This document shows, piece by piece, positions 48 through 55,158 of a stretch of 64,000 nucleotides of DNA. Location of the stretch: contig MQRK01230377.1 in NCBI GenBank assembly GCA_001938485.1, positions 1 to 64,000 on the forward strand, written 5' to 3'. The position numbers and the translations under genes are program-made. The first letter of the stretch is position 1. Each line of letters starts with the position of its first letter. Under the pieces are notes generated by a model, which was not told the origin of the DNA, searched no databases, and saw nothing but the letters and a program-made list of their open reading frames with translations. The DNA is from Girardia tigrina. Lineage: Eukaryota.

Positions 48-655
48 ATTTAGAAACCTATTTCTGAAATCCTTCTACTCAATCAATTTTCTTCAAACTT
101 TGCACACTTACTCATTCTCGATGACAATAAATGATTATGTAAAAATTTAATCAAAAAAAACTTTTTGAGATCCAAAAATGTGAAAAAAACAAAAAATTCG
201 GAGTTCCCGAACAATATTAATCGCAAGATATCTATTTATAAATTATAATTAGTTTATATTGATTTTTATTGTTTTTTTAATTAAAATTTTTAAATTTTAA
301 AAACTTTGTTGGAAAAGTAGAGTTTGGATATAAAAATATAAAAGAATGGATATAAAAATTTTTAGTTTTTGATTTACTAGTTTTTGAAATTAAATTAATT
401 AACATCCAACAGTAAATTATTTATAAAGAATTATTGTGTCCTGTGTACACAAAATCAAAATGTACATGGACCATATCATGAGATTAAAAATATCTCATAA
501 CATGTTGTCTTTAAAATTTAAATCCATAAATTTTGTTTTCAGATTTATATATACATATAAAAATTTTTATGTATATAAGGAATTATTTATCTGCAATTAT
601 ATTTACCATCTTATAAGTTTCTAAAATTTTAAAAAATCAAATAAGAATAACAAAC

Positions 656-1226
656 CCTTGCAGCCTTGCTATTTGAACCAGAGGACATAATTTTATATAA
701 GGATTTTCTATATCGAAAGCTACACTGTCCTTCAACTTCAACAAATCTCTTGTTTTTTTCACTATCTTCACTGTATTTTTTAAGCTTGTTACTGGCTATT
801 TTATATGTCTGATAATCACTCCAGCAACATGGTTCCATAAAGTGTTCATTAATTCCCCAAAACAAAAGTTCTTCCTCGAAAAATGTCAGGCACACATTTG
901 GTGGAGAATGGAGTCTACCTGTTCGATAGAAATTTAAAACGGAATTAAAGCACACTGGATCACGATCAATAAACACAATGTCATCATAGTTGTGATCACC
1001 TAAACATTTATGGAGTTTGGAGTCGGAAATATTGTATAGTGTTTCATCAAATATTTCAAATATTTTCCCTCCGACGTTAATTTTCTTCGTTTTTGCTGGT
1101 GTTTTAGATTCATCCTTATAAGCCCAAACTGGAAATGTTGGTGCTTCTATATTAAATATTTTTAGAAATAGATCAAAAAATGAAACTCTTCTGTTCCACC
1201 CTCATCAAGAAACTTTTCTTTGCCAT
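656..1226 (-). CDS. Voltage-gated K+ channel, Shaw/Kv3-like, 5' exons (T1 domain); gene continues beyond the left edge
   Basis: The frame extends upstream of the called ORF to KINVGGKIFE...FIDRDP...LNFYRTGRLH...FEEELLFWGI...EPCCW (T1/BTB domain; the C-terminal part is most like Shaw). Predicted exons 1187-1226 (ATG) and 656-1146 are joined by a 40-nt GT-AG intron; donor GTTTGT follows SKAAR. Confidence 0.85.
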
Positions 1227-1350: not shown

Positions 1351-2439
1351 CGTGGTGCAATCCCTAAGTCCTTAGACTCGTTGATAAATAAGAGTATGAT
1401 GTATATGCGGTTGATACTATAAATAGATGAGCTATCATTGGTTACAGATATGACTTACCGTACCCAATCTGTGTGTGTTAGTGGTGCGTACAGCCATTAT
1501 TTCACTTTTTACTGTAGACATGGACAGTAACGTCGAATATCGCAGCGTGATAAAATTTCTGCTCCTGCGCAATACTAAAAGCTGCGATATTTTGCAGCAG
1601 TTGCAGGAATCTTACGCTAACCAGTGCTCATCACGTGCCACAGTGTATAATTTGATCAGAGACTTTAAACATGACTGACAATCCGTTTTTGATGCTGAGA
1701 GGTCAAGACGACCGTGTGAAATTTTACCGGGAAAAGTGATTTGTGCATGAAGATCGTGTCGGAAGAGAGACGAATAAGTATCCGTGAACTTGAACTGCGA
1801 TATCCATCAGCTACCTACATATGATATTCTGCAATCATTTGAATTTCGCAAACTATGTTCACGTTTTGTTCGCCGATTCCTATCCGGTGAAATGTGTGAC
1901 AAACATTTGTAGTGTTGCACTGCCAATATGGAGTTGTTTCGCACTCATATTGATCGCTTCCTCAACAACATCGTTACACAAGATGAAACCCCGGTGAACT
2001 TGTGTGTGCCTGAGAACAAGCGTCAATCTTCTGAGTGGTGCTTCCCCTGTGAAATTGCTCACAAAAACTTCGAAGCGGCACCTCACACAAGCGAGCAGCA
2101 ATGCTAACTTTGTTCTGGGATTCCCAAAGCATTATTAAAATATATTTTCTTGAGAAAGGACTGACAATGAATATTGAGTACTATATTGAATTAGTTCGTG
2201 ATGTTAGAAAGTCTCCTAGGAAGCCAAGAGGGATCCCATTGTGGCTCCTTCAAGACAATGCACCCATTCACACTTTGCGAGCAATTTTGATTGCTGTGGA
2301 TGACTGTGGCTTTCCGTTGGTTTTTCACCCCCTTATAGCCCTGACCTAACCCCAAGTGATTTTGTGTTGTTTAAATACCAAAAGAAACATTTGAAAGGTG
2401 TCCACTTTCATTCAGTCGATGTCCTCAAGGAGAAAGTCC
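1351..2439 (+). mobile_element. Degenerate mariner transposon, 3'-truncated
   Basis: TA followed by a TIR-like start. Frameshifted transposase with HTH N-terminus (EYRSVIKFL...RATVYN), LLQDNAPIH and HPPYSPDLTPSDF; it breaks off at the inverted repeat of the next element. Confidence 0.85.
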
Positions 2440-3180
2440 TTTTCAATGTGCTAGCACAATGCTTTTTAAGTTGCACATATGCAAAAGTGCAAAAATCAAT
2501 ACATAAAATTTTTTAAAAGTGCTAGTGCCAAAAATCGATATGATGTGTTTGATGCACATTTTGATTCTCTATCAGAATGTGCAATTAGAAATTTCATATA
2601 TTGATTACTTTTCCCTATAATTAGCATAATGTGCAAATTTACACAAAATGCATATCGATTTTAGAGGTACAAGGAAGCAGAACATCAAAAAAGCGCTGAT
2701 GCACTTGAATAGGAACCCATATACATACATTCAGATTCCATGTCAACATTTTCGAAAAAGTGCTTAAAAATCGATTTTTTCGTATATTTATGAAACCAAT
2801 GTATTCCATGTGTGTTATTTAACATCAAACAATACCTCGTGAATCGCCTAATGTACCCCCTCAACAATCACAAGTACCTTGGTTACCGTAACCAAGATAA
2901 ATAACCTTTTATCTTATATTTAAAAACTACATGTATAAAACTCCTATTATACTTAAAACGTGCATAGACATTATACATAACATGTACATAATCAGCTAAA
3001 TTAGCTGAGCCTAGGCATCACCTATCACAAGTACCTTGGTTGCCGTAACCATGTGACATAACCTTTTAATATATATATAAAAACCTATGTAATACCTAAA
3101 ACATGCATGGGTATTCTACACCACAAGACCCCTTACGGAGGGTCGACATCTACCTACATTGTGAAAGTTCATTACATTCA

Positions 3181-3215
<35 letters not shown>

Positions 3216-3546
3216 AAAAGTGATACATTAAAACAAACTATTATTAAAATAATTAATATATCTATTTAAATAATATGATATCTATTATATTGTTATATTA
3301 TCAACCATTACCTTATCAACCATTTACAAAAGTTACCGTATCCAAGGTGATATGGTCATGTCAGCTTATTGCACTCATCGTGTCAATGTATTGCATAGTT
3401 AACATTTTATAGTATATATTAATAGTATATATTAATATTATATATAACAAAAGTTGTTGTTTGCAAGGTTTTGAATGAATACATGTATACGACGACTATT
3501 TTCAACAAACATTTATTTGCATAACATGCACAGATGTAACAAATTT

Positions 3547-3587
<41 letters not shown>

Positions 3588-3676
3588 TAGGTTTTGAATG
3601 AAGATATAACAATATATTTGAAACACAACTTATATAGTTGTAATCACATGTCACTGTAATAGATTGTAAAATAACA
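2440..3676. repeat. Left arm of long inverted repeat
   Basis: Its reverse complement aligns with 8550-9668 with indels and (TA)n length differences; the mirrored ORFs 2685-2867(-) and 9242-9469(+) are near-identical. Confidence 0.95.
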
Positions 3677-3731
3677 ATTCGTTGTATTTGATTGTTGATG
3701 CAAGTTTTATTGTTGTGTTAATAGGTTCCAT

Positions 3732-3789
3732 GACAATTCGACACAAGACAATTCGACACACGACAATTCGACACAGACAATTCGACACA
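3732..3789 (+). repeat. Four tandem copies of GACAATTCGACACA
   Basis: Units start at 3732, 3747, 3762 and 3776 with 0-1 nt between them. Confidence 0.9.
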
Positions 3790-4104
3790 ATTTAACACTG
3801 GTTACCGTGTTAATAAATCTTCTAATAATTTAGTCTTGATTTCATAAAAAATAGGTTAATACATTTTGTTAATTTGGATTTAGAAACACAAATGAAATAT
3901 GTTTTTAAGACATTGAAGCTGAATTTAGAAATGAATGGATAAATATTGTACTTGTTAATATTATCATCAAGAGTTGTACGTTAATAAATGTTTTCCATAT
4001 TATTTTCTGTAATGATTATTTAATTAATCTATAATTGAATTTAAACGTAACAAGATTATATTAAACATTTATTTACAAATGTTCAATATATACAAGTAGA
4101 TCAT

Positions 4105-7100
4105 TCACAAAAAATAATGTCCGTGATGTAATGTACTTATTCCATCTGTTAAAATATGTCGTTTATCGTCAAACCAATTTAGGCTTTTCTTCCGCATCAT
4201 TACTGTGGAGACTTTATGTTCTCTTGATTGGATCCTTCGCATTTCAGAAATTATATTGATTTGTTCCCGCAGCACTCTCATATAATCATGGAATCCGATT
4301 TGGTTTGCTAACATTGCCCGTTGAATTCCCTTTGCCCTTTCTTTGATATTACCATCCACATCAATGGCATACATCTTAGACGGTAGTGCCACGAATCTAG
4401 AGATGATTTGACCATTGATTTCATCCTTAAACTTTCCAAGGACCTTTTCATTTGATATTCGAATAATTTGGATGGTCCTTTGGATAGTCTGAGGTATCCA
4501 TATGTTGAGCCATTTGAAAAAACTCCGCAAACAGAACTTCTGTATGAATCTGATAGACAAGGCTATCAGTATCCATATACATTAACTGTAAATCTTGGAA
4601 TTTGGGGACCATGATGTCATAGTGGAAGTCATACATCAAGGTCTTGGATAGATCCAGGATTGACATCCCCACATATATTGGTTTTCAGTGTATATAATAG
4701 TTCTGTGGAAGATTGATTTGGCAATGAGCTTCTTTGCCCGCTTCCAATCATATACCAGTTCGATGTTGATTCTGTTGCGTATATTCTCCATTGTTTTGCC
4801 AAAAACGCTGTTATTGTACAGTTTGAACTGATCCTTTTCAAAGTCGTTTTTGGCATTGGTCCTCAGATTGGTATTAAAGTCAATATATGGCTGAAGCCAT
4901 TTTAACTGACTAAACTGAAGAGCCCAATGTATTTTTATGATTATGAGACCATTCTTAATAGCTTGTTGAAGATTGATGTAGTGGGCTACATATTTTTGTT
5001 TATTTTCCAAGTGACAGAGCAGCTTCTTATGTTTTCTATTAGGTGGACATTTTCTCTCAGCAGAAAAGGCAGCTGCTCATGTCTTGTATGGAAGGATTTG
5101 GGATATTCAACATCAACTTCCAATATGTAACCCACATCTCCATTAGGGTCCATTTTTTCTATTGGAATTTCTTCTGGTTGATCCATCCATTTGAAATTGT
5201 CGTAAGGCAGTGGAGCACTCATTACCTAATCATATAAGTTATTGGCATTCAAGTATGTTTTGTATGAAAATGCCTTGGACGGATCATAAATTTTCATGTA
5301 TTTGTTGTTTACTTCACTGTATCGATGAATAGATTGACAGATTCCACCTGGGATAACTTTTTCCAGCATGATGATCATGTCATAATCTTTCAGGACTTGG
5401 AGCCTTATGCATGTATATTTCAGCATTGCTGCCAAACTCATACCTGGTTGTGTAAAGAAATGAGCTGGATATAACTTGTGGCTCTTAAGTGTCACATCCC
5501 GAAAGCTCTCAAAGACATCCGTAAGAAGCGGCTTAACAACACATCACTATATTCCCCAAGTGTTTGGCATTTGAAAGCTTGCCAGACATTTTGTGCATAC
5601 TGATAATCAGCATCACTAATGTCAGTGTCATTAAGCTTGTTGTAAAATGCCTCTTTTGCTGGCAATGTTGTTTCATCCAGCGATCTCCATGATGTTTTGT
5701 AGCCATAGGGGAATATTCCTTTCCTTTTTACCAAGTCAAATTATTTGGGAAGAACTTTTTAGTTTCCTTCAGTTCATCTGCTGGAAGATTCTTCACACGG
5801 CTGTCCAGCGATGATGACATGAACCCGAAACTATCGATGAATCGTAGCTTAATTCTTCCCACATGCTTGGTAAATGTGATGTATTTTTCCTCACTATTTG
5901 GAATAACATCTATATTCCCTTGGATTTTTCCAAGTTCTCTTACTATGAAGTGGGAGTCATATTCACTAAGACTGTGGAATACAACAGGAACATTTGTAGA
6001 TGTTTTACATCGCAAATTGCAGTTATTACATACTGCTCCTCGATATTTTCTAGTAAAATGACAATGATCTTTGACTTTGTTATTGTCATTTGTGAATGGC
6101 TTTTCACACATGTAACATTGTGTTGTCTTGTTCAATTGATATTTTTCTCGCAAAGTCATCACCATATTTAGCTTGTGTTGTTCCAGCATGTCTTCAATTG
6201 TATGGGCATAAGTTTCCATACGTTGCATAAAATGTTCCGCTGCATCTGGACCTCTGTATAGGAATGACTCCTTGTCAATACCCAATGCATACATACAGTA
6301 TGATGATAGCTCATGATACTGGTATGCTGTCGTACGGCTACGTTGCGGATCCGGATTGCACGTTTGGATTGGGCTTAGAATGGCTTCAAAGTCACAATAT
6401 ATGATAATGGGAACTTTCTGCATCTTTTCATATTCTTTGAATTCGATATAATCTTCCTTGGGAAATTCTGCTCTGATACAATGAGTGTTATTGCAGTAGG
6501 CTTTGTGCTCCTCTAAATTGATTGTTGCATCATCACCATTGAAATGAGTAAAGCATCTTTTACAAATCTCTTTACTTTTGTTATGTTTTGATATTTGGGA
6601 GCTTAAGAGACGCTCAAAGTTCTTGATCCAGATGAAATTCCTCTTTTCTTCATGATGTAGCAGAAGCAAATCTCTATGATCCTCTAATTCTTCCTTATAT
6701 ACAAGTAAGGGATAAAAATTTTCATTCTCTAATCCAAAGATTTTGATTGAGATATTGTTGATGCCTCCAAATTTAGTGACTTCATCAAAGCTCGGTGGGA
6801 ATGATATGCAGTTGAGGTCATGTGTGCTGCAGATTGTTGTATTTAGATACTCATGATGCATTGTTTTGATCTTTAACGAATTTTGATAGTATCGCATACT
6901 TGAAGCACATATTGTCATTATTTTTTACATTGACGCATACCTTTTTTATTAGATATCCATTCAGTAAGTGACATGTAGGAGGTGCCTGTCATTGGTGAAT
7001 ATTTATGAACATAGATAATCAATTGATCTTCAGATGACAGAGTCCATCCACTTTTCTTCTCCTCGCTATCGTAAGCTTCCTTTATTATTTTGACATGTTC

Positions 7101-8030
7101 TTCATTGAGCCACTCCAAAATATCATCGGATTCTAACATTGGCCTATTTTTGTCTTGAAGGCTCTTTGTGACAGTTCATCATCAACATTGGTGAATGTTG
7201 CCTCCAATTTAAGTTTGACTTTGATAGCCTTGAAATCAACCATGTTGTCTTTTAGAATCTCTATGGCTTCCTTCTTGTAATATTCCAGAAACTCATGGAG
7301 ATTTGTAACCTTGCTGCCTTGGCTGTCTAGGTTAGCCTGGGGAGCCTTGATAACATATTGACGTACCTTCTTATTCAATGAAGCTTTATGAATTGGTCTC
7401 AGTCTTGAACTTTTTGATGGAACATTTATGATATTTGTATCATTTGCACGTTTTGATAGAATATTTACAGCCATGACAGTATTTGAAACATGTATCTCCA
7501 TTGGAACTTTTGTAAAATTGACATGTTCTAAGGGAAATTTTGTTGTATTTGAAAGATTTTTCTCTATTTGAACATTTGAAACATTCTTCTCAATTGAAAA
7601 GTTTGAAACATTTGGTGCTGCAAGAACTGGATACATTGATGATGTGAATAAAGCCTTCTTGGACTTCACTGAAAAGGCGCCCAAGGGGTCCTTGTGACAT
7701 TCATAAAATTGATTATAGTCGCCACTACTTGCATTTTGACACACTGGACAAATGTAATACTCACATCTATTGAACACATATCCATAGTAATGCTTTATTG
7801 TATCATGACAATTTTGCGGATTGTAAACATTTGCCACACAGCATGAATATACTGAACATTGCGGAATTTTTGTTTGTATTTTCTCTTGAATTATCTTCGA
7901 CATATTTTCTTTAAATATATTCTTTTTCGATTTAGTGAAAGGAACCAGATGTTGTTTATGGTCATTGTAAAATTCTTCAAAACTAGTTCTGTACACTGTC
8001 TCGCATGTTGGACATATAAAATATCCTGTT
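4105..8030 (-). pseudogene. Type B DNA polymerase (Polinton/protein-primed type) with endonuclease VII-like Zn domain, frameshifted
   Basis: About ten consecutive ORF fragments carry the motifs in order: ExoI IIYCDFE, CYMC...KVKDHCH...YRGAVCNNCN (EndoVII-like), ExoII FHSLSEYDSHF, RFIDSF, RKGIFPY, motif A YLNANNLY, GYILEVDVEYP, motif B KLYNNSVFGKTMEN, motif C YMDTDS, LGKFKDE, KMYA, C-terminal TLHHGHY. Confidence 0.93.
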
Positions 8031-8328
8031 GAAGAGAAACTCTACTTGTAGTATTGGGATAAATTTGAATTCTAAAAACATATATATTGACGGAGCTGAC
8101 CAAAAACTAACCGTTTTCTTAACAGGATTTTGAAATAATGAAAAAATGTCTGGATGTCACGATATCTTATAACGTTTATTATATTTATTTTATTTGATGC
8201 ATTAAAACAAAACATACTATTATAATAATAATACTTATTACTTTAAATATAATAAAACAAACACTTGTTATTAATTTGTTTTAATGAATCACTTTTAATA
8301 AAGACACAAGGCGGGAATTTGAATTGAA

Positions 8329-8647
8329 ATGAATACATTGATATTCATTTTTAACAAAATGCTGCGTAATATCAATTATAAAGGATTTACTGGTGATTGT
8401 CTGAAAGATCTCCATTTTGGTACTAAACCGTGTCAATGTGTTTTACACTTTGCGGAGTACACTATCATATTCTTCCGCAATGGAAAATGTAGAATAATGG
8501 GCTGTAAGCAACATGGTGATCCATCCACTTTACCTTACAATATCACTAATGTTACTTTATAATCTATTACAGTGACATGTGATTACAACTATGTAAGTTG
8601 TGTTTCAAATATATTGTTATATCTTCATTCAAAACCTAGTATATAGT
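8329..8647 (+). pseudogene. Divergent TBP-like (TATA-binding protein fold) ORF, one repeat plus the start of the second, with a premature TAA at 8560-8562
   Basis: MLRNINYKG resembles TBP LQNIVST; TIIFFRNGKCRIMGCK resembles TALIFSSGKMVCTGAK; read-through gives NVTL[Q]SITVTCDYN, resembling DFKIQNMVGSCDVK. The left inverted-repeat copy has CAA at the stop position. Aligned by eye only. Confidence 0.65.
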
Positions 8648-9668
8648 CGTCGTATACATGTATTCATTCAAAACCTTGCAAACAACAACTTTTGTTATAT
8701 ATAATATTAATATATACTATAAAATGTTAACTATGCAATACGTTGACATGATGAATACAATTCGCTGACACGATGAGTGCAATACGTTGACGTGACGATA
8801 TCACCTTGGATACGGTAACTTTTGTAAATGGTTGATAAGGTAATGGTTGATAATATAACAATATAATAGATATCTTATTATGTAAATAGATATATTAATT
8901 ATTTTAATAATAGTTTGTTTTAATGTATCACTTTTAATATATATATATATATATATATAAATTGAATATAATGAACTTTCACAATGTAGGTAGATGTCGA
9001 CCACCCGTAGGGAGTCTTGTGATGTAGAATACCCATGCATGTTTTAGGTATTACATAGGTTTTTATATATTAAAAGGTTATGTCACATGGTTACGGTAAC
9101 CAAAGTACTTGTGATAGGTGATACCTAGACTCAGCTAATTTAGCTTATTATGTACATGTTATGTATAATGTCTATGCACGTTTTAAGTATAATAGGATAA
9201 AACGTTATATATTTTAGTTACAGTAACCAAGATACTTGTGATTGTTGATTGGGTACATTAGGCGATTCACGAGGTATTGTTTGATGTTAAATAACATACA
9301 TGGAACACATTGGTTTCATAAATATACGAAAAAATCGATTTTAAGCACTTTTTCGAAAATGTTGACATGGAATCTGAATGTACGTATATGTGTTCCTATT
9401 CAAGTGCATCAGCGCTTTTTTGATGTTCTGCTTCCTTGTACCTCTAAAATCGATATGCATTTTGTGTAAATTCGCACATTATGCTAATTATAGGGAAAGA
9501 TAATCAATATATGAAATTTCTAATTGCACATCCAGATAGAGAATCAAGATGTGCATTAAACACATCATATCGATTTTTGGCACTAGCACTTTTAAAAAAT
9601 TTTATGTATTGATTTTTGCACTTTTGTACATGTCCTACTTAAAAAGCATTCTGCTAGTACATTTAAAA
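8550..9668. repeat. Right arm of long inverted repeat
   Basis: Mirror of 2440-3676 (e.g. atcgatttttggcactagcacttttaaaaaatttt vs aaaattttttaaaagtgctagtgccaaaaatcgat). Confidence 0.95.
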
Positions 9669-9774
9669 TGTGTGGCACAATGTGCACTATCGATCAACAC
9701 TTAAAAATATCAATTAGCACATTTTGGCACTGTGCAGTGATCGATTAGCACTTTTCTTCAGTTGCAATGTAAAG

Positions 9775-10212
9775 GGTCACGGTTCCCATGGATATGGGTA
9801 CCGTTACCATGGTTACAACCAGCTTGAATGACTGTATCAGTTGCTAATGAAAAATGTCCCTTGGTTACCGTTGCTAAAGATATTAGGACCTTGGTTACCG
9901 TTGCTAGGGTGATCGGAACCGTTGCTATGGTAACTGTGACCGTTTCTATGGTAATCTGAATCGTTTCTATGGTAACTGCGACCTTGGAAACGACCTCAAC
10001 GTTTGGTAACCTATACTCGTTGCTATTGCAAACGGTAAGCCCTCGCAACGTTATGAGATTTCGAAGGGGGGAGGTCAGTAACACAACTACCTTTTACCAT
10101 GGCTACAGACATGTTTTCATTGGTTACTGTACCGATTTCCATAGTAACTAGGCAATTTCATTTGTTATCGTGGTCCGTTGCCATGGTGACGTCACCCATT
10201 CCATGGTAATCA
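9775..10212. repeat. Array of X-box-like palindromes (GTT.C[CT]ATGG.AAC), partly with 21-bp period
   Basis: gttaccatggttac 9803, gttgctatggtaac 9921, gtttctatggtaat 9942, gtttctatggtaac 9963, gttgccatggtgac 10177, plus degenerate copies. Confidence 0.8.
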
Positions 10213-10354
10213 AGATTATTGGAAAATTTATTGATTGATGCAGAACTCTCATTATCCCCCTACTAAATAAAAACAAAATCAATTAACCAAGTTTTCAAAA
10301 TAATTACTTTATACCTAATAACTCGATAACTATTGACTTTGGAAGAAACCTTTC

Positions 10355-13300
10355 TGTAATATGAATTAAAATTAATAATTCATTTGTTTTAATCGTGTAA
10401 CATTATTCTTCCCGACGACAAGCTATCGCGGCATCGATGAAGGGGATAAAATTCATATATTCGGTGCGGCTGTTCAATGGGATGGGAGATTTCGAATCAT
10501 GGTCCCGTAAATTTGAAGTATTGGCAACCATATGCGGGATTGACAAGGCGAACGCGATTGAAATGACGTTAGAAGGCCGTGTGTCCGAGCTGTTCTCAGG
10601 TATGGAGAGCAGTGCCTGTGAGGAATATTTTAAATTGTTTGAATGTGTGAATGTATTGATGCTGTATGTTGATTTGAGTATGCTGAACTTAGAATGGTGA
10701 TTCTGCCACCCATATGGAAATTTGTATTTCTTTTAAATTTAAAATGATTGACTATTCGAACATAATTAAAATAATAAGTTTTTATTTTTTTAAATTAAGT
10801 TTAATATTTGTTTTAAGAAAAGAAAAGCATTTAATTAAATTTAAATAAATTTAATAAGATTTAAATTAAAGTCAATTTAAAAATTTGATAACGTTTTTAT
10901 AATTTTGTGTTTTTATATATTTAGAAGTGATTTAAATTATTATTTTTAATTAATATTTTTAAAAATTTATGTGTTTTTAAAAGATTAAGAAAAATTGTTC
11001 GAATAAACATGATTAAAAAGAGAAATAACGAAACCAATTAGAGCGATGTCAAATGATGAAAGATCTTCGGAGAGTTGTAATAACTCTAAATGTTGTAATA
11101 AAAATTCAAATGAGAATTGTCTCAATGTTCTTAATAGTGCCCAATGCGACTACGAGACGGTAAAATTGACGCTAATGGATGCGTTCGGACATGACTCGAA
11201 AACCGCTTATGATGATTTACGCATGAGAGTTCTTCAGCACGTTGAATCTATTGATGAATTCGTTGCAGCATTAAGGTGATCTGCAAAGATTGCGTGCCAC
11301 AATTAAGAGCTGCAAGAGCCGCTGGTCAGACAAGCCTTCCTGGCGGGTCTTCCAGATGAAGTTGCAAGGTACATCGCATCGGAAGCCGTGAAAGACGGGG
11401 TGACGTAGCAGCAATTAATTGCACTTGCACGTGCTCTACTTAGCACTAATCGATTGAGATCTGGAGTGACTGGGGCCACGACAGTGTCGGGGAACGACAC
11501 CGCCGGGAAAAAGAAGGTACCGACATCTGCAGTGACATCAGAAGTCAATTTGGCAATTGCGCTGAGATGCTTCAATTGTGGCAGGAATGGAAACCGGTAA
11601 AGCGACTGATGGACCGCACTGAAGTGGGTGGTGAATTCTACGGTTGCACGCCAGTCCAGGGGTTCTTAATTTGCAGCGCGAGGGGCTTCGTTGCAAGGAC
11701 TGCCCACGCAGAGGCCAGCCGGCGGGAAACAAATAGGAGGATCTCATGGTTGCGCGAGTGTAATGCCGCGAGGCATTGCGCAAAATTATCAATAGTTGAT
11801 GTGCTGATTGAAGGGCAGTGCGTGAGAGCGCTCGTGGACTATGGATGTTCTACGTCGATGATCGACGAGAAATTGGTGGATTCAGAAAAGGTAGAGTGAG
11901 TATCATGGTGGACCTTGTTCGCGAAGAACTTCAGCGGGATCGGAGATGGATGTAATAACCCAACTAAGGGGGGTCGCAATCCGTGGAAATGGAATTCTGT
12001 CGGCTTTCACGGCTAGCCAAACGAGTGAGTTTGCCCTGTAAAAGAACCGCAGTCAAACGACCAGAACGGGACATTCGTATCGGAATCGAATGGGGTTCTG
12101 TGATACGGTCCGGCTCGAATAACCGATACGAACTTCACTGCGAAATTTGAGAGGGTTTCTTGGTCTGTTAAGTGGCACTGGAATGGGGGAAAAGTACCCC
12201 CGGTACATGATAGTGTGGTCCAATACGCATCTGTGAAAATCTACCAGGAAGAAGTTAGTGCAGAACTTCATGAGAGAAAAAAGAGGAGGTGGTGGTCAGA
12301 ATGTGAAGGCCTACGGAAGCCAGTACTGCCACTTATGGCCATAGTTCAAAAACCCAAGGAGAAATTCTGTACGGTTCTCGATTTCAGAAAGCTGAACGAG
12401 TCAATATCGAGTCACACAGCAGAGATTCTTGTCTGTGGAGACAAGATCAGAAAGTGGCACCGCATGGGAAGATATTTGAAAATCGTTGACTCAAGGCGTG
12501 CATATTTGCAGATCAAGGTCGATAAATCGCTATGACCCTATTCGGTGGTGAGACATCAGGGCCGATCTTGGTATTTAACTCAGCTGGGGTTTGAACTAAG
12601 TGTTGCTCTGAAGATAATCCAGAAGAACATGTGCTCGGATCAAACCCAGCAGTTCAGTTCAGTACCGACGCGTACTAAGATGATATTGTAGTGGATACCG
12701 CCAAGATTCCGATAGAGAGGCTGATGGCAGTACTTAAGCGATTTTGTCTGGAAGCCAAACCCTCGGTGGCAATAGATGACAGCCGCATCCTGGGATTGGC
12801 GGTGAAAGCAGAGGCAAACGGTACGCTTCAATGGAGGCGTGATGGTGATGTTCCGGAACTCCCAGAAAAATTAACTCGCCGCAGTATTTTTGCATGGACA
12901 GGACGGATACTGGGTCATTACCTAGTGTGCGGGTGGTTGAGGCTGTCTTACAGTATTATGAAGAGGGTCGCTGGAGAAGGAAGGTCGAACCAGAAGCGAC
13001 TACAATGGCAAAGCAATTGGCAATGAGAATCAAAGAATAAGACCCAGCTCGAGGCCCTTTGGAAGTCCCGAAGACTGAGAAGTGTAAAGTGTGGTTTAAT
13101 GCCAGCTCAATGTTAATTAGTGTATCGAGATCGGGGGAGAGATTACTGTAGATTTTTGCTGGCTCCGGTCAAAAGAGGATTGTAACCACATAAATTTGGC
13201 TAAACTCGACTCGGCAAACCGGGCCATCAAAGAGGCGATGAAATGGTGACTCAGAGGGATCGAGCTTTTAACAGACTTGGTAGCAATTTGCAAGTGGCTC

Positions 13301-14718
13301 AAGAACGCAGTGTCCGGCGCAGGACCCATCAGATCTCAGGCGCTGAGTGACTTATTAATCAGACGAAGGATTATTTTTTTAAACAGGTCGCTGAAGAGGA
13401 GCTGCTTGTCATTAAGATCACCCTGGTCCAATCAGAAATGAACAAAGCAGACAGACTAACTTGTGTACCAGATCATTGTTGGAGTATAGTCCAACTGAAG
13501 CAAGGAATAGCCAGGGTAGCATTAGCAGAGATAGAAAAAATGGAAATGAGTGATGCCCTGAATCGGCTGCATAACATAAACCACTTCGGGGTCAGGTGCA
13601 CTATGTTCCTGGCAAGGAAGGTGTGAGGTCCAAGGAAAGTCACCGAGGATCAAGTGAAAGCCATCGTGAATGGTTGCAATCAATACATGTCAATTGATTC
13701 AGTGCCAGTCCAGTGGGACAAAGAAGAGATCAACTTAAGGAAAACTTGGCAGCGGCTGGACATGGATGTCACACACATGGGGCAGCGAAATTCTTTACAG
13801 TCGTGGATTGCGGGCCAGGGTGCTTCATGGTGTGGAGCTAAATAATCTCAGAAAACGAATCCGACATATATGCTGCGATGAATAGAATTTTGTGTGAGTT
13901 CTGACCCCCTGAAGAAGTCCTTTTAGATAATTTTAGCACGTTCAAAGGAGCAAGGATAAAGAGCTTGCTTCAAAAAGCTTGGGTTGAGGCGAGATATCGA
14001 TGAGTGAACCATCCGAGCGGCAATAGCATTGTAGAACGGAGCCATCGCACGATTAAAAGGATGGTTGTTCGGAACGGCAGAGACGTAAAAGAGATGGTCA
14101 CTTGGTATAACACGACAACAAATACGGATGGTATAATCCCAGCGTCAACAGTTTTCAACCAGAAAAGGAGGCTGCTACTACCAAGGACATTTTTTTCAGG
14201 TAGAGCCAGAACAAATTTGAAATTTGCAGTCGGAGACGAAGTATTCGTCCAGCCCGCATCGCCATACAACTGCATGACCAAGTGTAAACGCGAGAAAGTG
14301 ACAGAGATTCCATCAGTACAGCAGGTGGAAGTGGACGGAACTCCATATAACATCAGCCATGTTCACCGATTGAACCCGACATCAGCAGCCGAACTTGAAT
14401 ATGAAGTGGGCAGGGATGAGGCAACTGAAGAAAATGGTGTAGTGCAGTTCGAACAAGACGAGGGGATGAATCTGAAAATGAGGATGCAGAACTGCAGCAC
14501 ACTGTCTCAGAGGAGAAAAAACCCAGCAGGGCGGTGCGTCGACCAGTGCATTTTGATGATTATGTCTGTGCGAGTGCTCGAAGAAAAAGTGTAAAATGAA
14601 TACCCCCTTGCTCAGACATTGCATATCTATGTGCCTTGAGGGAAAGGGTGTGTGTAATATGAATTAGAATTAATAATTAATATGTTTGTATCGTGTAAAT
14701 TTATTCTTTCCGACAACA
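10355..14718 (+). mobile_element. Ty3/Gypsy LTR retrotransposon, degenerate, 66-bp LTRs
   Basis: LTRs 10355-10420 and 14653-14718 (TG...CA), TSD CTTTC, PPT gagggaaagggtgtg. Contains gag, CCHC remnant, protease (ALVDYGCS), RT (VLDFRKLN; Y*DD), RNase H (NKADRLT) and integrase (SGNSIVERSHRTIK) in Gypsy order. Confidence 0.93.
10617..11136 (+). mobile_element. Solo LTR (TG...TA family) inserted in gag
   Basis: TGTGAGGAATAT...GTTCTTAATA flanked by TSD GTGCC; removing it rejoins gag (SGMESSA|QCDYETVK). Confidence 0.88.
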
Positions 14719-52600: not shown

Positions 52601-54234
52601 ACTTTTTTTAATTTAAATTGAAAATTCAATTTTTAAAAATATTTATTTATTTTTATTATTTTTTTAATAAAATTAATTTTATTTTTTACTTATGCAATTA
52701 TTAAAAGAAAATTTTTTTTGAAAAAAATGATTGATTTTTGTATTTTAAATTTGATTAATTAAAATATTTTGATTAAAAATTTGATTAAAAATTTTGATTA
52801 ATTGAAAAATTTTTGAAAAACATACAAAATTTTATATTGTTAAATGGACATTATATTAACAAATGGTTCTAATATTATGTGTGTTAAGGGGTAGAAAATA
52901 TTGTTTCATATATTTTCTATTCTCAAATGGACATTTTATTATCAAATGGACATTTGAGTGAGTACGTTTTTTTAATTAACATTTTGATTGGTTAAATTTT
53001 ATTTTTCTTTCAATTTTAGATATGGATTTATTATCGAATGGATTCATGTTATAATTTAATGGACCTCACTGTATATAACGCTTCACGTGTCACTCTCTCC
53101 CAATAATTCCTAAATTATATATTAAAATTATCAAAAATTAACTAAAAAATAATTAAAAACTAAAAAGAATATTAAAAATCCTAAAAAAATAGTATTATAT
53201 TATATATATAATCTATTATAATTGGCTTGTTAATTTTAATTTAAAATTAAATAACTTATTTATTATATTTAAAATTCATTAAAATAAACGATTCAAATTT
53301 ATAATTACAGCGAACCAAAAAAGATATGAAACTAAATCGAATTTCCCCTACATTTACACTGTCAAACCCAATGATAACCAAATACACACGAAAACAAAAA
53401 CCAAATGTCACTCACCCGATATCGATTCGACGAAATATCCTTCAAAATATTACTGCAAATTTTCAACTCGTCCGACAATTTCACGACCGGAATTTTCACG
53501 AGCGCGATCTGCTCATCGAGCGACTCGTTCTTCAGCGAAATCGACGGACTGGGAGTCGGCGACAAATCGTAACACGATTCGACTTTCCGTTTTTTCGATT
53601 TGGATTTCGCGTCCGGAGAAATCGAGCAATTGCTCGCATTGGTCGATGTCGCTTCGTTGTAATTCGAGGTCGATTTGATGCGCTTAGTGGTCGGCCGGAG
53701 CGATTTCTTTATGTCGCACACTGGCGGCGGCTCCGAGGACGAATCGTTGTTAATACTGCTGGATTTCGTGTCTTTCTTGGCGCTGTTGGTGTTGCTGGCG
53801 CCGGAGGAGATGTCGTTTTCTTGGGACGGCAATTTTTCGAGTTTCGAGTTGAAGATGTTCTCGAGCGTCAGAGTCATGCTGATCAGATCGATTTCCGGAG
53901 GATTGAAGATGTAGCAATTCTGGAACACGAGTCTCACATCGGTGATGCACTCGTCGGCGTTGTAATAGAATTTCTTGATCAATCGATTTTTGATAGTGGT
54001 AAAATCCATTGGATAATGCACGATTTTCGGATAATCTGGGATATTGAGCGCCGTATGATCGACCGGATGGAGAAACGGAAAGGAATATTTGTGTCGCATT
54101 AGTTGCGGAAGGATTTTCTTTTTGATAAATTGAAGTCGATTGGTGAGAACATTGGCCGGACGAGGCAGACCGGAACTATCGACAGATTTGTCGATTTGTT
54201 GCGTGATTTCGACACAATCATCCGAAACGAGCAT
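31673..54234 (-). CDS. BET-family bromodomain protein (BRD2/3/4, fs(1)h-like), short form BD1-BD2-ET-SEED, ~704 aa
   Basis: Exons 53416-54234 (BD1: [35 protein letters not shown]), 45320-45706 (BD2), 41739-42132, 38748-39161 (ET: [30 protein letters not shown]) and 31673-31773 (Ser/Asp tail, TGA). All introns are GT-AG with compatible phases 0,0,1,1; total 2115 nt. Confidence 0.92.
31879..32233. repeat. Inverted pair of Penelope-type pLTR fragments with degenerate minimal hammerhead motifs
   Basis: CTGAAGATG...GAAATT.A.TACAATAAATTTT at 31879-31923(-) and 32192-32233(+). Confidence 0.55.
31995..32096. mobile_element. 102-bp mariner-type MITE
   Basis: TA|ttgggtgtacaactaattaatttcgtattttttt ... 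aaaaaaatacgaaattaattagttgtacacctaa|TA. Confidence 0.8.
33002..34130 (+). mobile_element. pogo/Tigger-like deletion derivative
   Basis: TIRs (ctccctatta.aagcca) with TA TSD; HTH N-terminus [12 protein letters not shown] and C-terminal NKPF..YLR...GWITKAW..ITPEII. Confidence 0.8.
34200..34620 (+). mobile_element. Penelope-like GIY-YIG fragment
   Basis: [21 protein letters not shown], paralogous to 46819-47094. Confidence 0.7.
36504..37141 (-). mobile_element. Tc1/mariner (maT/DD37D-like) deletion derivative
   Basis: TIRs cag.gt..tccgtttaaattg.gac; transposase N-terminus RSAEII...KVTVYRIAK...EGSAT...HNRS. Confidence 0.7.
37287..37934. mobile_element. Solo LTR
   Basis: TGTTGGG...CCCAACA termini with 4-bp TSD GTTG. 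Confidence 0.75.
43851..44497 (-). mobile_element. HINE/DINE-1-like non-autonomous Helentron
   Basis: Subterminal inverted repeat agcgcaatttcc/ggaaattgcgct, microsatellite-like tract and ACTTG|TTT end; near-identical copy at 61899-62601. Confidence 0.7.
44520..44960 (+). mobile_element. Tc1/mariner transposase C-terminal remnant
   Basis: [20 protein letters not shown] resembles WPPYSPDLNPLDFFLWG.LK. Confidence 0.55.
46733..47280 (+). mobile_element. Penelope-like element 3' end (GIY-YIG endonuclease + pLTR)
   Basis: [29 protein letters not shown]...[13 protein letters not shown], followed by a hammerhead motif and AATAAA. Confidence 0.85.
47201..47237 (+). ncRNA. Minimal type I hammerhead ribozyme (Penelope-associated)
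   Basis: tgca-CTGAAGA-t-acc/gaaat/ggt-GAAA-cgcgT-A-tgta: core intact, palindromic ACGCGT stem III, 4-bp stem I. Confidence 0.75.
49437..49893 (+). mobile_element. 5'-truncated solo LTR (same family as 10617-11136, ending in CA)
   Basis: Colinear with ~10691-11136 (agaatggtgattct...aattgtctcaatg.tcttaa); a matching 5' piece starts at 48548 but the TSDs do not match. Confidence 0.75.
51276..52117. mobile_element. Unclassified long-TIR DNA element with internal Cys-containing coding remnant
   Basis: atagttccgtacgggccccag ... ctggggcccgtacggaactat with ~90-bp imperfect TIRs; related copy at 62915-63480. Confidence 0.7.
52212..53071. mobile_element. Tc1/mariner-type MITE
   Basis: TA|cagtgaggtccatt ... 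aatggacctcactg|TA. Confidence 0.8.
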
Positions 54235-55158
54235 TTTCGATTAATAATTGATGAGTGACAACTGAAAATCGGCTTTAGAAAAACCGTAAAATCATAATTT
54301 GAAAATAATATTGAAAATGGTGAACAGAAAGTGAAATCAAAATTTACATTAAACATAAAAGTAGTAAAACAAAATTGTTTGGAATTTTTTTCGTTTGTTT
54401 TTTGTTTTTTATGTGTAAGATTTTGCGATATGAATTTCGACAAAAAAATATAAATATGAATTTTTCTTGGAAGAGAGAAAAAAATTTTTTTAAATTTCTC
54501 TTTCTGTTGATTTTTTGTGGATGTTAGGAAAATTTGAAAATTGAAATGTTTTTTGTTTTCATTTATTATATGACTTTGATAGAAGTGGTTTTATTTTAAT
54601 AATAATTTTTTTTAATTTTTTAGAGAAATAATTAAAAAATATATTTTTATTTTCATGGTGCACTTTGTATGGATTCTAACTTATTTTTTTATTAGATTTT
54701 TCAAATTTTACCATTATTAAAATGGTAAAGAATTACTAAATTTATCATACTTAAAAATAATTACTTCCTATCAAATTTTTGAAAAACTATAAAAAATTAT
54801 TTAAATTAGTGTAAAATCGAATCAAGGAATTAAATCGATATTTGCTTAAAATTAAATTTAAATGTATAAAAATAAATTACAAATTCGAATGCATAAATCA
54901 AAAGTTAAATATAGTTTATTGAATACAAAGTAGATTAATATAAAATACCATGATATGTAAAATATTAGGGAATAAAAAAGTTTTTTTGAAAAAAAAACTG
55001 TACTTAAATTATTTTAGGGAAATACCTTTGATAATACATTAGTTTTAAATACATAACGTTTTCATTTTAAATTTTAAACTGAGAATTATTCATTTTAAAT
55101 TGAAATTTCCTGAAAATTTTTAAATATTTTTATTTCAAGAATTTTAAAATCTTTTATA

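Follow-up and report, generated by a model that had tools for sequence, protein, structure and literature searches.

Polymerase and integrase–capsid genes on separate elements with shared termini in a Polinton family of Girardia tigrina

Introduction

Polintons (Mavericks) duplicate 6 bp of their target site and, in the replication model applied to them and to adenoviruses, the linear molecule forms a panhandle after excision, by pairing of its terminal repeats. Both the formation of particles and the mode of replication of Polintons are still largely inferred. Small replicons with terminal repeats and a protein-primed PolB are also found among the linear cytoplasmic and mitochondrial plasmids, and the killer plasmids of yeast constitute a dependent pair.

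As far as the accessible parts of the respective sources tell, the polymerase PolB and the integrase are the two defining Polinton genes (PMC6431247), and in Pieris mannii, Polintons lacking polB have stayed mobile while complete polB-bearing relatives coexist (10.1101/2025.02.07.637071). The same parts describe bidnaviruses such as BmBDV (PMC4061559) and the Drosophila Vesanto virus (PMC8363768) as segmented, with terminal repeats that match between segments and, on one of these, a PolB derived from Polintons, and MELD viruses as Polinton-like genomes carrying a gene labelled TBP (PMC8502044; 10.1101/697771).

The locus investigated here lies in a stretch of 64,000 nucleotides from Girardia tigrina (the window). 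It is a copy, both decayed and rearranged, of that half of a Polinton which carries the polymerase. The family to which it belongs resembles Polintons in its kb-long terminal repeats beginning with AGTAG and its 6-bp target duplications, in a protein-primed PolB that is found on one element only (segment 1), and in the rve integrase with chromodomain, A32-type ATPase and predicted double jelly-roll major capsid protein (MCP) of another (segment 2), which likely encodes a cysteine protease as well. It differs in that PolB and integrase reside on separate elements of 7-9 kb instead of a single one of 15-25 kb. With linear plasmids it shares the small protein-primed PolB replicon with terminal repeats and, with the killer plasmids, the pairing, whereas it lacks an RNA polymerase, inserts into chromosomes with integrase-type duplications and carries a capsid module on the partner. 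The Pieris mannii elements contain genes duplicated within their terminal repeats, as is the case for the TATA-binding protein (TBP)-like gene in the arms of the window copy, whereas the accessible part of that report describes no reciprocal polymerase-only family. BmBDV and Vesanto virus, in the portions of their descriptions at hand, combine ssDNA with a parvovirus-type capsid and an NS1-type helicase and have no integrase. In contrast, the partner described here encodes a predicted double jelly-roll capsid protein, an ATPase and an integrase, both parts integrate with 6-bp duplications, and segment 1, which holds only PolB, a predicted SSB (a protein binding single-stranded DNA) and TBP, contains neither a Bidnaviridae-type parvovirus capsid gene nor a superfamily 3 helicase. 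The 6-bp duplications, together with an integrase of retroviral type and a double jelly-roll capsid that the partner contributes, identify a Polinton system, and the link to bidnaviruses or linear plasmids considered in the original prediction is unsupported. Nor is novelty of the pairing of PolB with TBP as such supported, in light of TBP relatives in full-size Polintons and the TBP label in a figure legend of PMC8502044. The likeness to MELD viruses concerns this legend label only and does not imply the same TBP family, and the accessible text of PMC8502044 and 10.1101/697771 mentions no segmented form.

Results

The window copy (positions 2440-10264, Table 1) is organised around inverted arms that enclose 4,873 nt, in agreement with the kb-long arms around about 4.9 kb of the original prediction. 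One alignment of the arms spans 1,069 columns at 90.0%, of which 55 are mismatched and 52 contain gaps, and a further 96 nt match at 96.9%. On the right, the element extends to a Polinton-type terminus, whereas the left terminus has been lost where a mariner remnant abuts, so that a target duplication is unreadable for this copy. The TBP gene overlaps the arms, both of which contain its 3' stub with an identical deletion of about 195 nt. As predicted, a decayed PolB occupies the minus strand, with frame shifts between its pieces and an endonuclease VII domain (Pfam, E 1.6e-7), and PolB of a sister copy matches PF03175 (E 9.7e-8). Equally confirmed was the TBP-like ORF on the plus strand: its 79-residue stub in the window has no Pfam match, and the 153-residue open frame of a sister copy matches PF00352 in two stretches (E 1.2e-15) and solved TBPs in the PDB (E 5e-12). 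Neither the element nor the rest of the window contains a gene for integrase, ATPase, protease or capsid, which also conforms to the initial description. The unit is natively not restricted to two genes, as the last four codons of a third, encoding the predicted SSB, survive at about 3677-3691. In the spacer at 3807-4104, the first approximately 90 nt match DNA upstream of the ATPase of the partner element at 74-78%.

Table 1. Features of the window copy, in positions of the window
Feature	Position	Strand	Remarks
Left arm, repeating the right-end region in inverse orientation; its terminus and outermost ~600 nt are lost	2440..3676		Mariner remnant abuts at 2440
Stub of TBP-like gene within left arm	3581..3676	-	Inverted pair 97%; ~195-nt deletion same as in right-hand copy
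Predicted ssDNA-binding protein gene (ORFx), last codons and 3' flank, remainder deleted	3677..3723	+	92% to L110
Small insertion of four GACAATTCGACAC repeats flanked by two GTGTTAATA copies	3724..3806		Missing in sister copies, whose alignment begins at 3807
Non-coding spacer separating the ends of the PolB and SSB genes	3807..4104		Comparison with sister copies and partner element
Decayed PolB	4105..8041	-	Pieces in changing frames; endonuclease VII domain; PF03175 in sister copy
Short segment that the usual layout has 5' of PolB as well as 5' of TBP	8125..8152		PolB-side matches stop at 8152, TBP-side matches begin at 8125
TBP-like gene, 5' half	8323..8585	+	Stop at 8560-8562, then ~195-nt deletion
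Right arm, portion pairing with left arm	8550..9668		Outward of about 8733/8900, terminal inverted repeat of the family, common to partner element
Outer terminal repeat	9669..10264		GGTTACC/GTTGCTA-type short repeats; ends CCCCCTACT

The divergent arrangement of PolB and TBP is real in the window copy, and its junction recurs on three contigs (C241605, C202178 and, for the promoter only, C2041), but it represents a minority form: among 29 other PolB 5' flanks, three run into the TBP promoter and 13 into a terminal repeat. The layout thus offers no support for the self-sufficient two-gene replicon that had been proposed. The short segment shared by the 5' regions of both genes probably marks the switch point, where a change of template would have placed the TBP-bearing right end in the position of the left end. 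Copying between the arms, which we propose because one deletion is common to both, and later deletions may then have followed. A fold-back mis-assembly, which the original prediction had named as a potential refutation, or a unique local rearrangement without wider meaning might be suspected in a fragmented assembly for a layout found in a minority of copies. Such a reading is already largely refuted and retains next to no probability, given arms that differ by about 5% and several indels, a junction that is found on other contigs and matches to the family in the thousands.

In its commoner layouts, segment 1 reads terminal repeat, PolB, predicted SSB, TBP, terminal repeat, or lacks the last genes, with PolB alone between repeats in many copies. 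Complete copies measure 7,379 and 7,710 nt, and no segment-2 protein was found in 115 segment-1 loci (594 kb). A search with its PolB found 601 longer relatives, one of them an adintovirus PolB (40% identity). The protein is closest to PolBs of Polintons in insect genomes (41-47%) and shares 24-40% with two further PolBs, those of the closest full-size relatives, between which the identity is 57%; these relationships are expressed as pairwise identities and include six metagenome PolBs. PDB and family alignments of the TBP-like family reveal both half-repeats of a TBP and, within these, NIN/QS and FxxGK motifs, which places the protein in the TATA-binding protein superfamily with putative roles in TATA binding and TFIIB recruitment. 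The third gene is complete in L028 (6335-6988). Its structural model (pLDDT 86), searched against 48,161 chains, retrieved DUF2815 (Z 8.2), the Enc34 SSB (8.0), T7 gp2.5 (7.8) and ASFV CP312R (7.1) as top four folds (rmsd 3.0-4.5 across 106-125 residues; next hit 5.1), and Foldseek matches in the PDB reached E 0.1-0.7 only. The protein is thus predicted to adopt the OB fold of the T7 gp2.5/Enc34 class and to bind ssDNA. Sequence searches of Pfam, NCBIfam, PHROGs and the PDB gave no name to the SSB, gene X, orf85, orf114 or an ORF at the PolB N-terminus.

A second element, about 9 kb in size, is likewise present in the genome at high copy number. We detected it with queries that came from a metagenome Polinton with TBP, and with these alone, after a Pfam A32 search had at first returned unrelated full-size Polintons only. 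As in segment 1, its ends start with AGTAGG and are flanked by 6-bp target duplications. Segment 2 carries a packaging ATPase (Pox_A32, E 5.6e-7), an integrase with chromodomain (rve, E 7.6e-13), a capsid protein, a likely protease and a last gene, X, and has no PolB. The MCP model matches the MCPs of iridovirus, Sputnik and mavirus (best E 4.5e-16) and is thus assigned as a double jelly-roll major capsid protein. The protease is suggested by HW/FD/Q/CG motifs, recognised by eye in an ORF of 117 residues located 3' of the MCP gene, which matched only ASFV S273R (E 0.78) and no Pfam family. A putative minor capsid protein of the single jelly-roll type is assigned from where its ORF lies and from 28-36% similarity to L139/L132 ORFs. 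None of 29 segment-2 stretches with arms at one or both ends contained matches to PolB, TBP or SSB. The original prediction had proposed that the same arms around a different gene set would support a segmented element, and this expectation was borne out by arms that also flank ATPase, integrase and capsid genes without PolB. Contigs of all four public runs inspected, which cover four organism codes from four studies, account for 30 of 30 bins of a segment-2 stretch and document presence, not expression or linkage. For positions 7300-8600 of the window, the best runs contain a third of the words, and the junctions of the window copy are without read support from these.

Joined copies of both gene sets were absent from our samples. 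Downstream of PolB, 40 flanks, drawn from protein-search hits as DNA queries that contain a junction favour their own, contained the repeat in 24, SSB in five and TBP in five cases and, among the matches listed, no segment-2 gene. Gene X is followed by the terminal repeat in 28 of 30 flanks, the other two being too short, with no PolB in any of the 30, and its junction with the repeat lies at a constant place in most copies. Upstream of the ATPase, the repeat was found in 19 of 30 flanks (seven were shorter than 900 nt and four unmatched) and in 15 of 20 flanks of a second sample. PolB and the capsid module were not joined in any of the 40 + 30 + 20 + 50 flanks, in which one of 20 ATPase flanks showed a PolB fragment beyond the repeat and one of 20 MCP flanks (C207158) the protease joined to a piece of TBP. 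Among the matches listed, the 217 PolB contigs and the 374 capsid-module contigs had none in common, in a comparison where TBP and PolB shared 10 contigs, X and MCP 28, and X and ATPase 10. These counts under-sample young collapsed copies, since each search was scored on its best 40-150 matches and long contigs of a fragmented and gapped assembly were over-represented among the flanks.

Both elements are bounded by long terminal inverted repeats with AG-type ends. In six copies with both ends, four show perfect 6-bp target duplications (three of segment 1 and one of segment 2), one a duplication matching in five of six positions and one none, and many further deletion forms retain intact ends and target duplications. 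The identity of 49 terminal repeats amounts to 83.0% across segments, compared to 83.5% and 82.8% within. In their tree, the repeats of both segments intermix, with 13 label changes versus 13.5 after shuffling and one pair with 97% support that unites a segment-1 and a segment-2 repeat, although this intermixing in part reflects a lack of resolution, since the tree is mostly star-like.

In metagenomes, full-size TBP-bearing relatives (L132, L139, L173, L185) hold SSB, TBP, orf85, ATPase, integrase, MCP and PolB on one molecule, and the two gene sets of the planarian elements are therefore complementary parts of one plan. Further metagenome contigs with 83-94% repeat identity read repeat-orf114-TBP and TBP/SSB-pZ1. 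Scans of viral contigs with the TBP alignment, ATPase and PolB gave no matches. A sister subfamily on short contigs of the assembly shares the repeats, with an identity that reaches 94% over 211 nt. Thirteen of its contigs contain a gene X at 66-72%, and on the six mostly stop-free contigs C237904, C170784, C172054, C27115, C181848 and C179118 its SSB is located 255-461 nt from an ATPase. Among the matches listed, none of 111 sister-SSB contigs appeared in the PolB lists. The genome also contains several elements of other full-size Polinton families, in which the frames for PolB, ATPase, protease, capsid and integrase are long and open. Their ends also read ...TACT, and their repeats share no DNA similarity with the arms.

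Selection was estimated from pN/pS of variants common to at least three copies, which amounts to 0.10 for PolB, 0.12 for TBP and 0.44 for SSB on segment 1, and to 0.34 for ATPase, 0.30 for MCP and 0.33 for protease on segment 2, compared to 0.7-1.0 for singleton variants. Fisher tests, uncorrected for multiple testing, gave p values of 4e-18 (PolB), 4e-10 (TBP), 0.015 (SSB), 0.015 (ATPase), 0.10 (MCP, not significant), 0.007 (protease) and 0.017 (integrase). Shared variants are thus under purifying selection in both gene sets, weakly so on segment 2; they could predate the split or have entered by recombination.

Discussion

The gene contents of both elements, their shared termini and 6-bp duplications, the absence of joined copies in our samples, the intermixed repeats and the purifying selection together point to a two-component Polinton, in which a replication and transcription half and an integration and capsid half complement each other in trans, an interpretation that we consider probable. 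Since the same-ended partner has integrase and capsid genes and no polymerase, each of the halves has likely multiplied with proteins that it lacks itself and obtains from the other. PolB and SSB of segment 1 would copy, and the integrase of segment 2 would insert, any molecule bearing these ends, while transcription from AT-rich promoters on both segments is probably driven by the TBP-like protein. Should particles be formed, the proteins of segment 2 would package both kinds of molecule. We refer to both as segments as they combine shared terminal sequences with complementary essential genes, as in a multipartite virus, and are known from integrated, mostly decayed copies. The distribution of polymerase and integrase over two elements would be new for Polintons. 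The literature searched contained no bipartite Polinton; a prior description is possible, as the search did not extend to most papers under subscription or to Repbase entries, figures and supplements.

Both elements could alternatively be non-autonomous deletion families, whose complementarity reflects where deletions fell, and for which a full-size Polinton with the same ends, present in the genome formerly or to this day, such as the sister subfamily, has supplied all proteins. The proximity of SSB and ATPase in that subfamily, the gene order and repeats of the related metagenome contigs, the many deletion forms with intact termini and the mobility of polB-less Polintons beside complete relatives, as described in the accessible part of 10.1101/2025.02.07.637071, are all compatible with such a helper. 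We nevertheless regard it as unlikely, if still a serious contender, as no joined copy appeared in the flanks or contig comparison, the sister SSB was never found on a listed PolB contig, the junction between X and the repeat lies at one place in most copies, and the strong purifying selection on shared variants of PolB and TBP would not be needed in passengers. Mobilisation of both halves by the unrelated full-size Polinton families of the genome appears highly improbable: several of these have long open frames and similar ends, but their repeats are unrelated to the arms and selection acts on the halves' own genes.

A different origin of the partnership, by capture rather than fission, would make segment 1 a polymerase-only satellite that has obtained its repeats, SSB and TBP from a PolB-less capsid element and its PolB from another Polinton lineage. 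The affinity of its PolB to those of insect-genome Polintons rather than of TBP-bearing relatives, the many copies with PolB alone between repeats and the polymerase replacement known in Polintons (10.1101/2023.08.22.554363, in its accessible part) are consistent with this origin, which we hold to be improbable, as the replacement could have taken place in a one-piece ancestor before the split and the comparison relies on pairwise identities to six metagenome PolBs. An identity of just 24-40% between the segment-1 PolB and its counterparts in the two closest full-size relatives does not establish a simple fission either, and a partnership built by capture would work in trans just as well.

Beyond the complementation in trans of a two-component Polinton, the family might constitute a bipartite polintovirus, a dsDNA virus of an animal with a double jelly-roll capsid and a genome divided into one segment for replication and transcription, with protein-primed PolB, SSB and a TBP of its own, and another for integration and the virion. 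Both segments would integrate and be packaged, and the SSB-TBP cassette would shuttle between them via the shared repeats, an appreciable possibility that falls short of being probable. Within a lineage for which only genomes in one piece are known, such a virus would be a segmented representative, and it would offer a living model for how Polintons gave way to segmented viruses with protein-primed PolB and to capsid-less linear plasmids. The split family itself already offers a possible path by which segmented viruses and polymerase-only replicons could arise from Polintons in one piece. With PolB and integrase on separate elements, each amplified, with its ends intact, to a copy number in the hundreds or thousands, action in trans and the cis signals of the repeats become directly testable. 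Annotation pipelines in which the presence of both genes is a requirement would overlook the two halves or label them wrongly. Finally, the assignment to the polymerase half of an SSB and a TBP, both under purifying selection, suggests that a replication aid and a basal transcription factor of its own belong to the gene set of this Polinton clade.

Structure of the window copy

The element in the window is a real but dead and rearranged member of its family. Its inverted arms, 90.0% identical over 1,069 columns with a further 96 nt at 96.9%, enclose 4,873 nt. Within them PolB survives as fragments in shifting frames, an endonuclease VII domain (E 1.6e-7) among them, together with the 5' half of the TBP-like gene; on the right side the element extends to its terminus CCCCCTACT at 10264. 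The arms and the TBP-like gene described in the original prediction are confirmed by the arm alignment and by the 153-aa open TBP-like frame of a sister copy, which matches PF00352 (E 1.2e-15) and solved TBPs (E 5e-12). Equally borne out was the claim that no integrase, ATPase, protease or capsid gene is visible in the element, and the rest of the window revealed neither further family DNA nor any further Polinton protein.

On its minus strand the copy reads PolB, a spacer, the last codons of ORFx, a jump to mid-TBP and the arm; on the plus strand, starting from a short segment (8125-8152) that in the usual family form occurs 5' of PolB and also 5' of TBP, it reads TBP, arm and terminus. A TBP deletion of ~195 nt is identical in both arms, and the 3' half of TBP is kept in two other copies having the divergent junction. 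This layout is not unique to the window copy: the PolB 5' flank leads to the TBP promoter in 3 of 29 other loci, with 13 leading to the terminal repeat. A template switch probably put the TBP-bearing right end in place of the left end, and copying from arm to arm, which the established model of panhandle, strand-displacement replication would yield, would have followed. In three PolB-only copies (L454, L443 and L456), the first with a perfect 6-bp duplication, the repeats have extended inward, so that the 3' end of PolB is now also present in them in inverted orientation. Genes located within Polinton repeats are described in parts of 10.1101/2025.02.07.637071.

Neighbouring features are listed in the table. 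The ends of the small insertion may be Merlin-like, and the Gypsy-like element, flanked by 66-nt direct repeats (86%), starts 90 nt from the Polinton end.

Features of the window and of related loci
Feature	Location	Strand	Remarks
Left arm	window 2440-3676		
Right arm	window 8550-9668		
Mariner transposase remnant	window 1454-2439	+	PF01359, E 5.8e-7; truncates the element's left side at 2440, where the left arm starts
Small insertion	window 3724-3806		two GTGTTAATA copies enclosing a fourfold GACAATTCGACAC repeat; resembles tiny DNA-transposon remnant
BTB/T1 domain frame, potassium-channel type	window 629-1201	-	PF02214, E 1.9e-21
Similar T1-like stretch	C208708 (L029 ~2150-2300)		by eye; directly adjoins element end
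Gypsy-like decayed retroelement	window 10355-14718		by eye, pieces of gag, protease, RT and integrase
292-aa frame	window 53365-54240	-	bromodomain-like motif by eye
265-aa frame	window 53305-54099	+	overlaps 292-aa frame on opposite strand
Gene X	L255 6350-6867	-	
Gene X	L132 9576-10052		
Ubiquitin-conjugating-enzyme-like ORF	L132 225-722	-	by eye
Dual-specificity-phosphatase-like ORF	L135 4008-4319	+	by eye
RING-like ORF	L173 13315-13914	-	by eye
Sister subfamily	C79276, C74939, C237904, C170784, C172054, C27115, C181848, C179118; L126-L128		
Unrelated full-size Polinton families	C234723, C220222, C224481, C197927, C69532, C222732, C222998		long open frames

Two elements with common ends

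In the same genome, first-look candidates numbered 4,322 for the terminus, 1,133 for TBP, and 3,554 and 4,233 for PolB, figures that do not equate to copies. With a query covering the 3' end of PolB plus adjoining sequence, which biases toward the PolB-ORFx junction, 26 of 29 other loci run into the convergent ORFx, and 12 of the 29 extend further to TBP, oriented like PolB. Downstream of PolB in 40 loci, chosen for ~2 kb of flank from the best 150 listed in the PolB search, the repeat is reached in 24, ORFx in 5 and TBP in 5. Segment 1 thus varies in form: some copies are PolB-ORFx-TBP, others PolB-ORFx or just PolB, and in others the ends are swapped. Its complete copies measure 7,379 and 7,710 nt, with 6-bp duplications.

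A structure model of ORFx, built from an alignment of 15 relatives (pLDDT 86) and compared with 48,161 chains, is closest to DUF2815, the Enc34 SSB, T7 gp2.5 and ASFV CP312R (Z 8.2-7.1, rmsd 3.0-4.5, 106-125 aligned), the fifth best reaching Z 5.1; Foldseek agrees weakly in the PDB and finds giant-virus proteins at E 5e-6. ORFx is thus a predicted ssDNA-binding protein, and segment 1 would combine a polymerase, this putative SSB and a TBP-like basal transcription factor.

The original prediction had proposed that the same arms around a different gene set would support a segmented element, and such a partner was found. With the ATPase and MCP of L139, a TBP-bearing metagenome Polinton, as queries (796 and 706 candidates in the same genome), we identified segment 2, an element of ~9 kb with the order repeat, orf114, orf85, ATPase, pZ1, integrase, minor capsid, pVI-like, MCP, protease-like, X, repeat, whose repeats are 73-87% identical to the window arms. 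Its integrase matches rve (E 7.6e-13) and carries a chromodomain, its ATPase matches Pox_A32 (E 5.6e-7) and its MCP model (pLDDT 72) resembles the capsids of iridovirus, Sputnik and mavirus, with E 4.5e-16 for the closest match; the protease-like ORF is assigned by motifs and a match at E 0.78 only, and the pZ1, minor capsid and pVI-like labels are our presumption from position and naming. A 6-bp duplication surrounds one copy and none another. Gene X, the end of the capsid module, is conserved in several Polintons and starts with an acidic motif, nuclease-like by eye; family searches returned no family match for it.

A probable two-part Polinton, or possible deletion families

We consider it fairly probable that the window copy leads to a two-component Polinton system, whose halves would complement each other in trans. 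Among 53 excised repeat cores, from which 4 duplicates were removed, mean identity is 83.0% between segments and 83.5% and 82.8% within them, the segment label changes 13 times on the tree versus 13.5 when shuffled, and the closest repeat to the window arm is a segment-2 arm; one pair with 97% support unites both segments in an otherwise star-like tree. Singleton variants show pN/pS of 0.7-1.0, consistent with decay after insertion, and variants in at least three copies 0.10 in PolB, 0.12 in TBP, 0.44 in SSB, 0.34 in ATPase, 0.30 in MCP and 0.33 in protease (shared versus singleton, Fisher test without multiple-test correction: p between 4e-18 and 0.035 in eight genes, 0.10 in MCP). Judged from these low ratios in shared variants, both halves seem to have retained working genes while the family multiplied.

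Alternatively, both elements could be deletion families served by a full-size helper, an explanation we regard as rather unlikely. It gains from a sister subfamily on short contigs, found with a metagenome SSB query (111 contigs at ≥59%), which is mostly stop-free and has the family repeats and an SSB, ~50% identical to that of segment 1, adjoining the ATPase (255-461 nt upstream of its match on 6 contigs), with X at 66-72% identity on 13 short contigs, and from related metagenome contigs with the orders repeat-orf114-TBP and TBP/SSB-pZ1 and repeats up to 94% identical. This subfamily, possibly a younger or active form, may include a full-size helper; it may equally be a capsid segment that bears an SSB-TBP cassette and is partnered by the PolB-only form. 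Against a helper, PolB was never joined to segment-2 genes in the sampled flanks or contig lists: 3' of X the repeat follows in 28 of 30 loci and PolB in none; 3' of MCP (n=20) X appears in 14, the repeat in 10, a TBP piece in 1 and PolB in 0; and none of 40 loci shows a segment-2 gene 3' of PolB. The repeat lies 5' of the ATPase in 19 of 30 loci (7 too short, 4 unmatched) and in 15 of 20 of a second sample. None of 29 long stretches of segment 2 has a match to PolB, TBP or SSB, none of 115 segment-1 loci has one to a segment-2 protein, and among the matches listed 217 PolB and 374 capsid-module contigs have none in common, with 5-28 for pairs within segments. These counts pertain to a fragmented assembly and to the best-scoring matches of each search. 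Exceptions are a protease piece joined to a TBP piece (C207158), a PolB fragment on the far side of a repeat (C192071), and TBP and X 60 kb apart (C225259).

Relation to known elements

In a two-component system, the two elements taken together display the Polinton hallmarks tested, with a putative protease, and would work in a Polinton-like manner, although neither carries PolB and integrase on one 15-25 kb molecule, the pair of genes by which parts of PMC6431247 define Polintons. Segmented pPolB viruses are described, in the portions consulted, among ssDNA bidnaviruses and for Vesanto virus (PMC4061559, PMC8363768, PMC11071296), and mobile Polintons lacking polB alongside complete relatives in 10.1101/2025.02.07.637071. 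The passages searched of PMC11161782 and 10.64898/2026.10.13.758929 do not mention a segmented Polinton.

The segment-1 PolB is 24-40% identical to those of L139 and L132, which are 57% identical mutually, and 41-47% identical to PolBs in insect genomes, which points to probable replacement or capture of the polymerase; such replacement in nematode Polintons is described in parts of 10.1101/2023.08.22.554363. A TBP alignment search found 79 metagenome loci. Among the first 66, 20 span at least 4 kb, of which 18 have matches to PolB, ATPase, integrase, MCP or protease and 4 have all of PolB, ATPase, integrase and MCP; in several loci TBP is flanked by SSB and orf85 homologues. This makes TBP an accessory gene in a clade of full-size Polintons, and it appears as a gene label in legends of the adintovirus paper (PMC8502044, 10.1101/697771). 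The combination of PolB and TBP, taken as undescribed in the original prediction, is thus not in itself new. No bipartite Polinton was found in the literature searched, with Repbase, subscription papers, figures and supplements lying outside the scope of the search. Three host-like cargo ORFs were seen by eye in TBP-bearing metagenome Polintons (table).

The unrelated full-size families of this genome encode PolB, ATPase, protease, capsids and integrase with parvovirus-type PLA2-like repeats (by eye), and have no repeat DNA in common with the window's family. On C222998, a copy of the latter lies within the end of a full-size Polinton.
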